Translations under genes and position numbers: made by a program
NCBI GenBank assembly: GCA_044229845.1
Contig: JBGASG010000002.1
Coordinates: forward strand, 128,001-192,000
Source: Candidatus Obscuribacteraceae bacterium
Lineage (GTDB): Bacteria > Cyanobacteriota > Vampirovibrionia > Obscuribacterales > Obscuribacteraceae
Direction of reading: 5' to 3'
DNA: 64,000 nt
Notes under the pieces: generated by a model
Database searches by the model: none
What the model was told of the DNA's origin: nothing
The model's input: only the letters and a program-made list of their open reading frames with translations
Shown: piece by piece, positions 24,537-30,203 of the stretch
Numbering within the stretch: position 1 is the stretch's first letter
How the letters are laid out: each line of letters begins with the position of its first letter

Positions 24537-25037
24537 TTATTGCGCGTTGTTCTGGTTTTCGACCAGGCGTTGCGTCTGAATCTGAAAATCCATCGGCGCA
24601 CCCAGACCTGGAATGCCCGGGAAAAACGGAATCGTCAAGAACGGGCGAATGCGAACCCTGGTGGTGACGCGCACTTCCATATCTTGCCGCTTCTGCGTGT
24701 CGGTCGTGCCGACCACATAGTCGACTTGCGTGTTTACTGGTTGCTGCAGCCCGACGAAATTGCCGATGCCCTTTGACTTCCAGTCGTCAGGGATCTTCTT
24801 GCAGACAGTGCCGTTGGGATCCTGCGCTTCCTTTTTAGGTAGCAAAGCCGCTTCGCGCAGTTGCAAGTCGTTCAGCGTCGCGCACGAGAAATAAGCAGCG
24901 CTCATGGCCACCAGGTCGAGCAGCGGAAAGAACAGCATCAGCAGCAGGATGAAGATAGCGGGACCGGTTTCGGCGATGGTTCCGCCGAAGGTGCTGCGTC
25001 TTCTTTTCATGCGTCGGGCGCGGCTGTCCTTGATCAT
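24537..25037 (-). CDS. TadE-like protein
   Basis: Basic leader, G/TIAE motif, hydrophobic helix. Confidence 0.6.
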   Translation of the reverse strand: MIKDSRARRMKRRRSTFGGTIAETGPAIFILLLMLFFPLLDLVAMSAAYFSCATLNDLQLREAALLPKKEAQDPNGTVCKKIPDDWKSKGIGNFVGLQQPVNTQVDYVVGTTDTQKRQDMEVRVTTRVRIRPFLTIPFFPGIPGLGAPMDFQIQTQRLVENQNNAQ

Positions 25038-25201
25038 GATGATGAACTTTATCCTATGCGTTTGGTCGGTGGACCGGGCTGGCGTGTGCCGCCAGTTAGA
25101 ATTACTGTCAGTTCGGTGATTTTAGCGGTGCATGACCGCACACCGACCAAGCGTCCAGATTGTGCACCCCTCAGACTCCCACGTCAAGCGGATTTCCTTC
25201 T

Positions 25202-25702
25202 ATGACTGCACCATGCACGGAACATGAGTTCATCGTCTCTGCTCAGGACTATCAGATCTATCTACAAGATGAAAAAGCAGAAACCGAATTTAGCGAAACG
25301 ATGCACGACGAATTAGTCCAGGACTTGTTTTCCATCGGCGATCGCATCGTTGCTATTGGCACCGTGCGTCCCACCGAAGTGCAGGTCGTCATCGAATGCG
25401 TTGAAGAAGAACCGGAAGATGAAGATCTGGAAGACTGGGATCAAGTGGTGGAATGCAGTCTTGATGTGCCATCGGGAACGCTGGTGATCACCAACAATAT
25501 CGAGAGCTTCGACATGGCGGCGCGGGTGCAATTGAATGCACCAGGCGTTTATCGCTTGCGCATTTTCTACGGAATGCTCGATGAAGTCGATGACGAAGGT
25601 TTTGAAGGCGACGACTTCTATAAAGTGGTGCTCTGGCCGGATTCGATGCAAGAGCCGAAGATGTTGAAGAAGTGGTTCCCGTCACTCAACTTCGAACCGT
25701 AG
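25202..25702 (+). CDS. Acidic hypothetical protein
   Basis: ORF with WDQVVECSL and GVYRLR. Confidence 0.65.
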   Translation: MTAPCTEHEFIVSAQDYQIYLQDEKAETEFSETMHDELVQDLFSIGDRIVAIGTVRPTEVQVVIECVEEEPEDEDLEDWDQVVECSLDVPSGTLVITNNIESFDMAARVQLNAPGVYRLRIFYGMLDEVDDEGFEGDDFYKVVLWPDSMQEPKMLKKWFPSLNFEP

Positions 25703-25707
25703 AACGG

Positions 25708-25735
25708 TGGACACAAAACGCGTTCGCGCTATAAT
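25708..25735 (+). promoter_or_regulatory. Sigma70-type promoter for the leader peptide/tRNA operon
   Basis: TGGACA-N16-TATAAT. Confidence 0.7.
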
Positions 25736-25744
25736 GAGATCACT

Positions 25745-25804
25745 ATGAACAAGAACCTGACACTACGACTTAGCCTCCCACTGCGCCTATATTATTTAGG
25801 TTAG
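25745..25804 (+). CDS. Putative leader peptide MNKNLTLRLSLPLRLYYLG
   Basis: ATG 9 nt after TATAAT; 7 Leu and 2 Tyr in 19 codons; upstream of Leu and Tyr tRNA genes. Confidence 0.7.
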   Translation: MNKNLTLRLSLPLRLYYLG

Positions 25805-25904
25805 GCAGTAGGCTTCGCGCGTATTTGTGATCCGGTCAATTTCATAGAAAGGATTCCGCTCTCTTATCGCGTAGAAGCCGCTTGCACGGCTTAAACCAGC
25901 GCAC

Positions 25905-25982
25905 GCCCGTGTGATGCAACTGGCAGACATCGCCGTCTTAAAAACGGTGTTTCTGGTGGTTCGAATCCACTCACGGGCACCA
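25905..25982 (+). tRNA. tRNA-Leu(TAA), short variable loop, CCA encoded
   Basis: GCCCGTG/CACGGGC acceptor stem, loop CTTAAAA, GTTCGAATC T-arm. Confidence 0.88.
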
Positions 25983-25985
25983 CAT

Positions 25986-26062
25986 GCCGACGTGATGCAA
26001 CTGGCAGACATCCTCGCCTCAGAAGCGCGGTTCTGGTGGTTCGAATCCACTCGTCGGCACCA
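25986..26062 (+). tRNA. tRNA-Leu(CAG), short variable loop, CCA encoded
   Basis: GCCGACG/CGTCGGC acceptor stem, loop CTCAGAA. Confidence 0.88.
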
Positions 26063-26064
26063 TC

Positions 26065-26141
26065 GCCGGTGTGATGCAATTGGCAGACATCGATAGCTCA
26101 AACCTATCGTCTTGGTGGTTCAACTCCACTCACCGGCACCA
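26065..26141 (+). tRNA. tRNA-Leu(CAA), short variable loop, CCA encoded
   Basis: GCCGGTG/CACCGGC acceptor stem, GATAG/CTATC stem, loop CTCAAAC. Confidence 0.88.
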
Positions 26142-26144
26142 CTG

Positions 26145-26220
26145 GCCGACGTGATGCAATGGCAGACATCGTTGATCGAGAATCAACGTCCTGGTGGTTC
26201 GAGTCCACTCGTCGGCACCA
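26145..26220 (+). tRNA. tRNA-Leu(GAG), short variable loop, C33, CCA encoded
   Basis: GTTGA/TCAAC stem, loop TCGAGAA. Confidence 0.85.
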
Positions 26221-26278
26221 CTTTTTCAAATCACCCTGAACCAATATGAGGAAGAAACTTGAATACGGAGAAACGACC

Positions 26279-26368
26279 CGGCGGGTGAAGCCGAGTTGGT
26301 CGAAGGCGCCGTCCTGTAAAGTCGGACTCGCAAGAGTTAACACGTAGGTTCGAATCCTACCCCGCCGA
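26279..26368 (+). tRNA. Atypical tRNA-Tyr(GTA)
   Basis: CGGCGGG/CCCGCCG acceptor stem, loop CTGTAAA, variable arm ACTC-GCAA-GAGT, GTAGG-TTCGAAT-CCTAC T-arm; no CCA. Confidence 0.8.
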
Positions 26369-26436
26369 ATCGTTTCACCATGGACTCTGCTACCATGAAC
26401 AGGTAGTCATACCGTCTCAAGTTAAGGCGAGTTCAG

Positions 26437-27231
26437 ATGCAAATGAGTAATCGCAGAAATTCGATGCCCCCGAGCGCAAAACAGGCACAGGCAGCAGGTT
26501 TTGCCGGACTGTGCCTATCGCTTTTGCTGAGCAGCGTGTTGCCCGCGGCAGCCAATGTCATTCCGGGCGGCACGGGTATTTCCTTCGGGCAGAACCATTC
26601 CTTCATTCTTAAGGCGCCTCCTGGCTGGTCGTTAGATACCGATGCCGGCGCCCAGCAAAATCTGCAGGCGGTCTTCTATCCCGACGAGTCGGACTGGGAC
26701 GGTCCCGTCGCCATGTACACCGAAGTAGATGCGCGCGAGGGCATGGGTCTCGATGCGGCGATTCAAGCTGATATTCAGGACATGAAGACAGACACGCCAG
26801 GACTTAAGGTCAGCGACGGCGGCACCGCGCCGACCGGCGACGGCAAGACCGCCACAATCAAGTATTTCAGCGGCAGCAAAGACGGCAGTTTCGAAGCCAT
26901 CGGCTACGTGCTCGAAAAGAATGTCGTCATCAACATCATTCTCACTGCCCGCAGCAAAGCGCAGTTCGATGGTGCGCTTCCGACTTTCCGCAAGCTGGTT
27001 GGTTCCTATAAATACCTGACCGACAATCCGAAGGGCGCCGATCTGAAAGCGCTCGCCAAGGCAGCCGGTGCCAAACCGACGCCGGGAGCGGAAGAATCCG
27101 GTGATACCGGATCTGGTGGCGGCACCACCACGGCTCCACGTAGCGGCGGCACAGGTTCCGCGAGTACCGGCACCACACCTGCCACCACCAAGCCGTCGAT
27201 CGGCAAACCCGTCACCAAAGACGATTTCTAA
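26437..27231 (+). CDS. Secreted hypothetical protein with Gly/Thr-rich tail
   Basis: Signal-peptide-like segment LLLSSVLPAAA; 264 aa. Confidence 0.7.
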   Translation: MQMSNRRNSMPPSAKQAQAAGFAGLCLSLLLSSVLPAAANVIPGGTGISFGQNHSFILKAPPGWSLDTDAGAQQNLQAVFYPDESDWDGPVAMYTEVDAREGMGLDAAIQADIQDMKTDTPGLKVSDGGTAPTGDGKTATIKYFSGSKDGSFEAIGYVLEKNVVINIILTARSKAQFDGALPTFRKLVGSYKYLTDNPKGADLKALAKAAGAKPTPGAEESGDTGSGGGTTTAPRSGGTGSASTGTTPATTKPSIGKPVTKDDF

Positions 27232-28445: not shown

Positions 28446-30203
28446 CTAGCGAGCGGGTATGTTATTGCGGCTGAACGAGACTTCCTGAATCAAAAGTTGC
28501 ACGAGTGGCGTAAGCTTCATATTTTGCGCGAAGTGTTTATTGATGGCGCCCAGAACGTATTGGCGCAAATCGTCGCCCGACAGCTTCGACAGCACTGCCT
28601 TATTTTGCAAAATCTCGGTGACGTCGGCTTTCAGCTGATTGATGAAGTCTTCGGGAAGCACGCCGCGTGGCAAAATCAAACCGCGAATGGAGATGTCGGG
28701 ACCGGCAACAATGTCGCGTTCTTTGGTGAGTGTCAAAACTATGTTGACCACGCCGTCTTCAGCGAGCAACAAACGTTCTTCCACAGTTTGCCAGTGAATT
28801 TCCCAGGACCCATTAGAATCGATGAGCACGATGCCGGCATCGATGCTGCCAATCTTAGATCCGCCGTCCTTGCGCAGTTCAAGCACATCACCGTTTTCCA
28901 GAACGAAGGTGTTCTCGCGCGCAACACCGCACTCGACTGCGAGTTCCGCGTGCTTCACGAGCATGCGAAATTCACCGTGGATAGGAATGAAATACTTCGG
29001 TTTGCAAAGGTTGATCATCAACTTCTGTTCTTCGCGGCAAGCGTGTCCGGACACGTGCACGCCGGAATCGCGACCGTAGATAACCTCCGCGCCACGCACG
29101 AACAATTTGTTGATCGTGTTGGCGATGGAACGCTCGTTGCCGGGAATCGGAGTCGCCGACACGATCACCGTGTCGCCACGGGCGATTTTGATTTGCTTGT
29201 GTTCGTCGCGCGCAATACGGCTCAGCGCTGACAGCGGCTCGCCCTGGCTGCCGGTGGTGAGAATGACGACTTTGTCGTGCGGCAGGTTGACGGTTTCTTC
29301 CACGCGAATAATCAGCCCGTCGGGGAACGTCATGTAACCGAGTTCTCGCGATATGTTGGCGAGGTTGAGCATCGAGCGTCCAAGGATCGCTACCTTGCGG
29401 TCGTATTTGATAGCCGCCTGCAATATCTGGCGAATACGGTGCACGTTGCTGGCGAAGGTGGTGACGATAATGCGCTTCTTCGCGTTGGCGAAGACTTCAT
29501 CGAGTTTCTTCCAGACAGATCTCTCTGAGGGTGTGTGCCCGGCGCGCTCGGTGTTGGTGCTGTCGCTGAGCAGGGCGAGAATGCCATCTTCAGCCGCGGC
29601 TGCCAGACTGGCGATGTCGTACTGTTCGCCGTCGACCGGCGTAAAGTCGAACTTGAAGTCGCCGGTGTGCACCACAGCACCAACCGGTGTGTGAATGATC
29701 AAACTGAAAGAGTCGGCAATCGAATGTGTGCAACGAATGAATTGCACGTTGAAGCAACCGACCTTCACTATTTGACGCGGGCGCACCTGGCGCATGACGG
29801 TGCGATCTTCGAGCCCGTATTCTTTGAATTTCTCTTCCAGAAGACCCAGTGCCAGTGCCGGTCCGTAGATAACCGGACAGTCGACTTCGCGCAGAATTTG
29901 CGGCACGCCACCGATGTGGTCTTCGTGTCCATGCGTGATCAAAAGCGCCTTCAGCTTGCTGGCATGTTCTTTGATGAATGAAATGTCGGGCAGCACGATG
30001 TCGACGCCCAGCATATCCTCTGAAGGAAACGCCAGTCCGGCATCGACCAGAATCATGTCGTTGCCGTACATGATGGCCATCGTGTTCTTGCCGATTTCAC
30101 CCAGTCCGCCAATGGGGATGATCTTCAATCCATTGGGTGAGCCGAGTTGTCCGCCGTTATTGATGGCGGCGTTGGGTTGTTTGCTATGGCGTTCGCTGGT
30201 CAC
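28446..30203 (-). CDS. rnj: Ribonuclease J
   Basis: GGLGEIGKN, THGHEDHIG, HTGDFK, TGSQGEP, HVSGHA. Confidence 0.97.
   Translation of the reverse strand: MTSERHSKQPNAAINNGGQLGSPNGLKIIPIGGLGEIGKNTMAIMYGNDMILVDAGLAFPSEDMLGVDIVLPDISFIKEHASKLKALLITHGHEDHIGGVPQILREVDCPVIYGPALALGLLEEKFKEYGLEDRTVMRQVRPRQIVKVGCFNVQFIRCTHSIADSFSLIIHTPVGAVVHTGDFKFDFTPVDGEQYDIASLAAAAEDGILALLSDSTNTERAGHTPSERSVWKKLDEVFANAKKRIIVTTFASNVHRIRQILQAAIKYDRKVAILGRSMLNLANISRELGYMTFPDGLIIRVEETVNLPHDKVVILTTGSQGEPLSALSRIARDEHKQIKIARGDTVIVSATPIPGNERSIANTINKLFVRGAEVIYGRDSGVHVSGHACREEQKLMINLCKPKYFIPIHGEFRMLVKHAELAVECGVARENTFVLENGDVLELRKDGGSKIGSIDAGIVLIDSNGSWEIHWQTVEERLLLAEDGVVNIVLTLTKERDIVAGPDISIRGLILPRGVLPEDFINQLKADVTEILQNKAVLSKLSGDDLRQYVLGAINKHFAQNMKLTPLVQLLIQEVSFSRNNIPAR

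Follow-up and report, generated by a model that had tools for sequence, protein, structure and literature searches.

Leader-peptide attenuation is the textbook bacterial gauge of charged transfer RNA (tRNA) in the control of amino-acid synthesis: leader-peptide attenuators control amino-acid operons (trp, his, leu, thr, ilv and phe), and leader families are held in Rfam. T-boxes bind tRNA directly, need no open reading frame (ORF) and control synthetase and amino-acid genes. The present analysis concerns a stretch of 64,000 nucleotides (nt), hereafter the window, from the 88%-complete assembly of an Obscuribacteraceae genome (non-photosynthetic Cyanobacteriota), in which a short ORF rich in leucine and tyrosine codons, accompanied by overlapping RNA hairpins, stands before a cluster of spare tRNA-Leu and tRNA-Tyr-like genes. 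The reading that is favoured, with somewhat better than even confidence, is that this leader would act as a ribosome-read leader-peptide attenuator gating the operon of spare tRNAs. Attenuation would here appear to control the tRNA genes themselves, such that a slowly read codon calls up more tRNA for that codon.

With the attenuators of amino-acid operons, the window leader and its relatives share a leader ORF rich in regulatory codons, overlapping 1:2, 2:3 and 3:4 pairings, a stop codon beside region 2 and, in two relatives (G093 and G095), a terminator hairpin with a U tract. The window leader differs from them in preceding tRNA genes instead of genes for biosynthetic enzymes, in carrying Leu codons of five types at alternate positions instead of a run, in its predicted leaderless messenger RNA (mRNA), in a 3:4 hairpin that lacks the U tract of an intrinsic terminator, and in matching no Rfam family. 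Its likeness to a T-box lies in a cis-acting leader RNA that would sense the state of a specific tRNA through a terminator/antiterminator switch; an Rfam scan of 25000-27000 up to E = 10 gave no T-box match. Leaderless attenuator ORFs, situated at or next to the transcription start, are described for Deinococcus and Actinobacteria in the available parts of PMC4007540 and PMC1262725; the leaders treated there control amino-acid genes, whereas the window leader precedes tRNA genes.

Within the same phylum, the trn operon of Anabaena PCC 7120 comprises supernumerary tRNA genes that, according to the available parts of PMC8421152 and PMC10272220, normally stay silent and are switched on when translation is compromised. 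The TrcR repressor is described in the former source, in the part consulted, as binding direct repeats that cover both the -10 box and the start site, with a regulon that includes the RNA repair gene rtcB; a phosphoesterase gene behind a leader of the present type offers a parallel to rtcB. Control is exerted there by a protein repressor and here by a candidate translated RNA leader, which suggests that supernumerary tRNA arrays can stay silent until needed without a protein regulator. The TrcR repeat motif TGTWNWWNWNNWGTANYNWA, as given in that part of PMC8421152, has no match at 25700-25760 with up to 2 mismatches, and the window as a whole holds 6 matches against 6.6 expected. Neither the term "leader" nor the string "attenuat" appears in PMC8421152, and full-text literature searches turned up no publication on the control of tRNA genes by leader peptides, in agreement with the remark of the initial annotation, made from the DNA sequence alone, that such an arrangement was not known to have been described.

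Leader codons and the tRNA genes behind them

The ORF runs from ATG 25745 to TAG 25804 (Table 1) with all the codons listed in the initial annotation, namely CTG, CTA, CTT, CTC, CTG, CTA and TTA for Leu and TAT TAT for Tyr. The promoter TGGACA-N16-TATAAT (25708-25735) also proved to lie where that annotation had placed it, with 11 of 12 matches; it is one of two promoter-like sites in 25000-27000, a region in which shuffled sequences give a mean of 1.3. As the ATG follows 9 nt past the -10 box, the mRNA is predicted to be leaderless or nearly so, and the ORF has no Shine-Dalgarno sequence. Its seven Leu and two Tyr codons among 19 stand against 9.8% Leu and 2.6% Tyr in the long ORFs of the genome, an enrichment in regulatory codons, and three of the seven Leu codons belong to the two rarest kinds, CTA (3.6% of Leu codons) and TTA (3.1%). 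Downstream, the anticipated Leu/Tyr tRNA operon was found as four tRNA-Leu genes and one tRNA-Tyr-like gene (anticodon GTA). These genes are spares, since ordinary copies lie elsewhere in the genome, both as housekeeping tRNA-Leu (cag, caa, gag and taa; 80-85 nt, with a long arm) and as an ordinary tRNA-Tyr, all of them without encoded CCA. The lone tRNA-Tyr that follows the leader in some relatives is also a spare, with a housekeeping tRNA-Tyr orthologue elsewhere in 5/5 genomes tested.

Homologues of the leader were sought at several levels of sensitivity. Among 104 genomes of the family, BLAST of the leader gave matches at E <= 1 in 62 genomes but at E <= 1e-7 in only 8, which were taken as real; the remaining matches were 16-45 nt long with E >= 0.004 and were set aside as noise. 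A covariance model of ten leaders had matches in 13 of these 104 genomes and a broader model of sixteen leaders in 28, while the rest of the class, sampled by 120 genomes from other families, gave a single weak match (27.7 bits). A metagenome scan with a region-2 pattern returned 0 matches; a scan with a tRNA D-arm pattern returned at least 119 loci, of which the flanks were taken for 80, and a profile search of 156 fetched loci added two metagenome leaders, L164 and L169. Upstream of 130 tRNA arrays, 15 Leu-rich small ORFs passed the filter, 7 of them belonging to the leader family; the remaining 8 stand beside 8 found in a control set of three times the size. As regards a phage origin, blastn against 50,697 phage records gave no match.

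The set tabulated for comparison comprises 31 homologous leaders, with the weak match G007:C43 (34.9 bits), the duplicate G020b and G066 (ORF start masked by N) omitted. An ATG start, a length of 17-20 codons, an unbroken frame and a stop codon are found in 31/31, so that the conserved upstream ORF looked for at orthologous tRNA clusters is indeed present, in frame, in every leader of this set. The same aligned TAG ends 29 of the ORFs, the other two stopping two codons earlier, and the differences in length, which fall into at least four classes (17, 18, 19 and 20 codons), are multiples of three. A -10-like hexamer (the best within 4-12 nt upstream; 3-6 of 6 matches) ends 4-11 nt before the ATG in all 31. 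It is mainly by this conservation in relatives that the leader is judged to be more than a chance assemblage.

The strongest evidence for the idea put forward in the initial annotation is the match between leader codons and the tRNA genes that follow. Leaders before tRNA-Leu arrays (n = 9) carry 6-8 Leu codons, together with 2 Tyr codons where a tRNA-Tyr follows and 0, 0 and 1 in the Leu-only arrays, in which no tRNA-Tyr was seen. Leaders before a lone spare tRNA-Tyr (n = 17, two genera) carry 1-3 Leu and 2-3 Tyr codons, and those before protein genes (n = 4) carry 2-3 Leu and 0-1 Tyr codons. The same holds between paralogues of one genome, where the tRNA-linked and protein-linked leaders have 7 versus 3 Leu codons in G001 and 6 versus 2 in G007. 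A further relative, G020, carries the leader MNNFRQPRPSLPQRLYR in front of an array of tRNA genes for Gln, Pro, Pro, Ser, Pro, Leu, Arg, Leu, Arg, Leu, Arg, Leu and Tyr; residues 5-17 of this leader, 13 in succession, all match isotypes of that array, and its six differences from the window leader are all changes to Arg, Gln or Pro, isotypes that the array contains. From these comparisons it appears that relatives change the leader codons to match the tRNAs that follow, and the family may be regarded as a natural experiment, in which one scaffold had its codons rewritten whenever the tRNAs behind it changed.

Mutually exclusive pairings and the proposed switch

Conservation of the pairings was assessed against alignments in which the arms were slid relative to each other. 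Hairpin P1 (1:2) is paired in 91.4% of cells in ten sequences, against 19-41% slid, with 3 pairs changed on both sides; in sixteen sequences the corresponding values are 80.6%, 24-43% and 8 pairs, and the 17 cells changed on both sides were equalled by 0/500 shuffles. P2 (2:3), which joins bases just past the stop codon to a stretch about 50 nt downstream, is paired in 93% of cells in ten sequences, against 24-57% slid, with 2 pairs changed on both sides. In the window, the P2 duplex reaches -22.9 kcal/mol, a value equalled by 1/300 shuffles. The 2:3 duplex was recovered in 9/9 Leu-type leaders, in 6 of which at most 3/300 shuffles match it; when 11 leaders of other types were searched for a duplex, at most 9/200 shuffles matched in 6. 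The window leader RNA as a whole (25740-25904) folds at -46.8 kcal/mol, against -38.0 +/- 3.7 kcal/mol for shuffles (z -2.4; 2/200 as good).

P1 and P2 share alignment columns 64-77 (25811-25821 in the window) and, by using the same bases, exclude each other; the 3:4 hairpin in turn shares 25875-25879 with P2. The locus has the layout of an attenuator, with mutually exclusive 1:2, 2:3 and 3:4 pairings, a region 1 that lies within the ORF and a stop codon close to region 2. The three pairings that had been proposed from inspection of the sequence all occur in the predicted folds: 25772-25784 with 25805-25814 forms part of P1, GGCTTC 25811-25816 with GAAGCC 25874-25879 corresponds to P2, and AAGCCG 25875-25880 with CGGCTT 25887-25892 corresponds to 3:4. 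The fold predicted for the free window leader contains P1 and 3:4 (-43.9 kcal/mol). With region 1 masked (the first 46 nt, mimicking a ribosome at the Leu codons) the leader gives P2 (-33.8 kcal/mol), and a longer mask, reaching 15 nt beyond the stop codon, gives 3:4 (-21.7 kcal/mol).

In the mechanism proposed, of which translation, stalling and the effect of 3:4 are deduced from this layout, transcription would start at or just before the AUG and a ribosome would translate the 19-codon ORF. A ribosome stalled at the Leu codons of region 1 or at the Tyr codons would leave region 2 free to pair with region 3; this 2:3 pairing would block the 3:4 hairpin, and the tRNA genes would be expressed. 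A ribosome reaching the UAG inside region 2 would instead cover that region and allow 3:4 to form, and 3:4 would likewise form in the absence of translation, following the formation of 1:2. Since the position of the ribosome would set the outcome, the signal would be the decoding speed of Leu and Tyr codons, i.e., the supply of working tRNA-Leu and tRNA-Tyr, and the output would be a second set of unusual tRNA-Leu and tRNA-Tyr genes. Such a leader would constitute a simple and portable decoding sensor for a chosen codon.

Table 1. Features of the leader and tRNA cluster, in window coordinates
Feature	Position	Strand	Basis and remarks
-35 box, TGGACA	25708..25713	+	Promoter scan; 11/12 matches together with the -10 box, 16-nt spacer
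-10 box, TATAAT	25730..25735	+	Promoter scan; ATG 9 nt downstream
Leader ORF, MNKNLTLRLSLPLRLYYLG, 19 codons + TAG (25802-25804), 7 Leu + 2 Tyr	25745..25804	+	Sequence reading
Region 1, 5' arm of hairpin P1 (1:2), spanning ORF codons 7-15	25764..25788	+	Folds and conserved pairing
Region 2, 3' arm of P1, stop codon 25802-25804 in a 3-nt bulge	25798..25823	+	Folds, duplex search, alignment
5' arm of P2 (2:3), inside region 2	25811..25821	+	Folds, duplex search, alignment
Region 3, 3' arm of P2 (CGUAGAAGCC), partner of 25811-25821	25870..25879	+	Duplex search, alignment
3:4 hairpin, AAGCCG-CUUGCA-CGGCUU	25875..25892	+	Fold; shares 25875-25879 with P2; 3' flank AAACCAGCGCAC, without a U tract
tRNA-Leu(UAA), 78 nt, type I (short variable arm), CCA encoded	25905..25982	+	ARAGORN; Rfam tRNA 43.5 bits
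tRNA-Leu(CAG), type I, CCA encoded	25986..26062	+	ARAGORN; Rfam tRNA 40.2 bits
tRNA-Leu(CAA), type I, CCA encoded	26065..26141	+	ARAGORN; Rfam tRNA 41.2 bits
tRNA-Leu(GAG), type I, CCA encoded	26145..26220	+	ARAGORN; Rfam tRNA 43.4 bits
tRNA-Tyr-like gene, anticodon GUA	about 26279..26368	+	Rfam tRNA 39.8 bits at 26281-26366; ends by sequence reading

Read-out and competing explanations

The attenuation reading of the initial annotation fits the comparative data as far as sequence can carry it, in the reading frame, the pairings, the spare status of the tRNAs, the codon match and the terminators of relatives. A considerable number of observations nevertheless weigh against it, several of which concern the read-out. 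Neither the terminator scan nor a separate check under strict criteria gives a terminator-like site in the window leader, where the 3:4 hairpin is followed by AAACCAGC; the caveat raised at the outset, that the last hairpin lacks a long U tract, is thereby borne out. With the U tract missing, 3:4 may at this locus act as a weak terminator, may impede 5' maturation of the first tRNA, 13 nt downstream, or may have ceased to function. A strict hairpin with a T-rich site is present in only 7/17 leaders checked (the anchor was not located in 5 further leaders). G093 and G095 do carry a hairpin of 7-9 base pairs (bp) followed by TTTTT and overlapping region 3, but their minimum-energy fold keeps this terminator hairpin even with region 1 masked, so that read-through there would need a kinetic argument. 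Rho-dependent termination was considered as the read-out and rejected: the 88%-complete genome yielded no Rho RNA-binding domain, whereas the same search finds one in 9/14 control genomes, and Rho therefore offers no rescue of termination.

RNA contigs bear on the reading in both directions. Contigs of four metatranscriptome runs from three studies cover the leader from 25756/25757 to 25895-25903, and none of them covers 25400-25755; sludge and biofilm samples thus contain RNA of the leader and the array but not of the upstream gene. Coverage of leader and tRNAs with none of the 355 bases upstream counts in favour of the attenuator. In two runs the contigs bridge leader and tRNAs (to 26238 in X15; 25840-26137 in X17), from which it follows that read-through occurs in nature. 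The contigs of three runs start at 25756-25757, 11-12 nt past the A of the AUG; were this a genuine 5' end, the start codon would be lost. Because contigs can show neither starts, ends, strand nor level, the shared edge hints only weakly, if at all, against a leaderless start, and the contigs give no attenuation ratio.

The comparative evidence has weaknesses of its own. Compensatory changes are few, at 3/20 pairs of P1 and 2/10 pairs of P2 in the ten-sequence set, and because the core of the ORF is the 5' arm of P1, codon conservation there is inseparable from that of RNA structure. The leader rows are kin, 12 rows of the g21 genus being near-identical, and the counts ignore phylogeny; moreover, the only alignable leader columns are those that carry the codon trait. 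The codon match itself is imperfect: G007 and G115 each carry a Tyr codon without a tRNA-Tyr, G020 has 2 Leu codons for 4 tRNA-Leu genes, and in g21 a lone tRNA-Tyr follows leaders with 3-4 Ser and 3-4 Arg codons. For the two CTA codons of the window leader there is no tRNA-Leu(tag) either in the cluster, as the initial annotation had already cautioned, or in the rest of the 88%-complete assembly.

A competing explanation is a general translation-stress sensor, a translated switch responding to any slowing of the ribosome, be it through antibiotics, starvation or ribosome damage, for which codon make-up would be secondary. The same scaffold stands before the phosphoesterase gene in four genomes with mixed peptides such as MINRLTIRTSFQLRLNPNRG, Leu, Ser and Arg codons occur as well in the g21 leaders that precede tRNA-Tyr, and the long tRNA array of Anabaena is induced by translation-targeting antibiotics (PMC8421152 and PMC10272220, in their available parts). 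Such a sensor would not explain why Leu and Tyr counts track the downstream isotypes across leader types and between paralogues of one genome, why the six substitutions in G020 all lead to Arg, Gln or Pro, whose tRNAs its array holds, or why the window leader is enriched in the rarest Leu codons; it is on the whole unlikely. A related and rather improbable extension would make the leader family a cis sensor of tRNA damage. Its members would read codons of the long-arm Leu, Ser and Tyr tRNAs that some nucleases single out and, when these are cut or depleted, would turn on differently built tRNAs (tRNA-Leu without the long arm, tRNA-Tyr with C1-G72) and, through the paralogous leader, a phage-type phosphoesterase that could heal cut RNA ends. 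Were this true, the family would form a repressor-free counterpart of the Anabaena TrcR regulon, each sensor being tuned by its codons. It is also conceivable, albeit quite improbable, that the attenuator works elsewhere and that the window copy is a relic with a decayed terminator, constitutive read-through and removal of the leader by RNase P. The U tract is absent after 3:4 both in the window and in G001 of the same genus, where tRNA-Leu(cag) has been lost, the window leader is the shortest of the family (12 nt between hairpin and tRNA), the Tyr-like tRNA has a stem mismatch and receives no ARAGORN call, and RNA contigs span leader and tRNAs. Decay of this kind sits poorly with an ORF, P1, P2 and 3:4 that are all intact in the window and 98% identical in G001, with the L169 leader being short too, and with three-state folds that work best in the window leader itself.

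An untranslated structured leader is very doubtful. The ORF would then be a by-product of a conserved RNA whose task is to bind a ligand (protein, tRNA or small molecule) or to guide processing, as might be argued from the placement of the most conserved ORF bases in the 5' arm of P1, from the lack of a Shine-Dalgarno sequence and from contigs that begin 11-12 nt past the AUG. The fixed distance of the ATG (4-11 nt) from the -10-like box, the frame kept through at least four length classes with a stop in 31/31 leaders, and a variable loop that still spells Leu and Tyr in frame all speak against this reading, and no Rfam family, T-box included, matches up to E = 10. That an unrelated short ORF and hairpins merely happen to lie beside a tRNA cluster has next to no probability: short ORFs and hairpins are common and the locus was picked after being seen, but homologues with conserved frame and pairings in 28/104 genomes of the family refute the notion. 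The conserved, translated-looking RNA switch before the spare tRNA genes is, on these comparative grounds, held to be real; a codon-matched attenuator is most likely what it represents, and it probably turns the spares on when Leu and Tyr codons are read slowly.

The spare tRNA genes, related loci and neighbours

The four tRNA-Leu genes of the cluster combine a Leu anticodon, a short variable region and a tRNA fold within 76-78 nt, as expected of type I tRNAs, and A73 and a Leu-like D arm are visible in their sequences. Comparable short tRNA-Leu genes are found repeatedly in long tRNA arrays, in cyanobacteria and Acidobacteria as well as on many metagenome contigs. A bacterial tRNA-Leu without the long variable arm, beside type II copies, is described for Streptomyces coelicolor in the available part of PMC6614811, where a single leucyl-tRNA synthetase (LeuRS) charges both types. 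That part deals with charging and not with regulation, and the window differs in bringing four isoacceptors together in one operon. Apart from three matches taken as noise, the five tRNAs are all that Rfam recognises in 25000-27000 at thresholds up to E = 10.

Bacterial tRNA-Tyr normally begins with the pair G1-C72. In the tRNA-Tyr-like gene of the window the first pair is read as C1-G72, a pair shared with the spare tRNA-Tyr of the g16 and g21 genera; on sequence reading, its variable arm is long, CCA is not encoded and the anticodon stem contains one U-U mismatch. ARAGORN makes no call for it in the window and calls a tRNA-Tyr at the matching place in relatives. The X15 contig ends at 26238, 18 nt past the fourth tRNA-Leu, where CTTTTTC follows the acceptor stem; judging by this edge, which need not be a true end, the Tyr-like tRNA may lie on a separate transcript.

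Several related loci carry the leader in other settings. In four genomes (L215:881-1474 (-), L214:2273-2866 (+), L211 and L216) a homologous leader precedes a phosphoesterase of 197 amino acids (aa), which matches PHROG 547 (E 1e-51) and PDB 1xm7 (E 5e-11) and has no Pfam match. In L214, a 149-aa ORF of no assigned family lies between leader and phosphoesterase, and an integrase-like ORF (a candidate, by its look) lies upstream. In G020 (L005:2947-3100 (-), L233) the leader ORF stops 8 nt before tRNA-Gln, the 5' strand of which occupies the place that region 2 has in other leaders, and about 640 nt upstream a duplicate leader (MNRRLQLRPSYPQRLRK) is followed by a decayed copy of tRNA-Gln. Five long leaders (L003, L019, L020, L021 and L022) have a conserved GGAGGTGAT, a perfect Shine-Dalgarno look-alike, past the terminator region. 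The idea that it might serve a second small ORF for ribosome binding was rejected: the peptides that such ORFs would encode show no conservation, and the motif itself base-pairs with a CAYYUCC further upstream as the basal part of the long terminator hairpin.

The ORFs directly flanking the tRNA cluster in the window have no Pfam match. An RNase J gene (28446-30203 (-); beta-CASP and C-terminal domains, E 5e-51) is situated 2 kb downstream of the cluster. Elsewhere in the same genome (G000), beyond the limits of the window, the ARAGORN calls include a tRNA-like gene of 98 nt at C1:107857-107954, whose anticodon has four bases (cacg), and a tRNA-SeC at C1:34428-34524.

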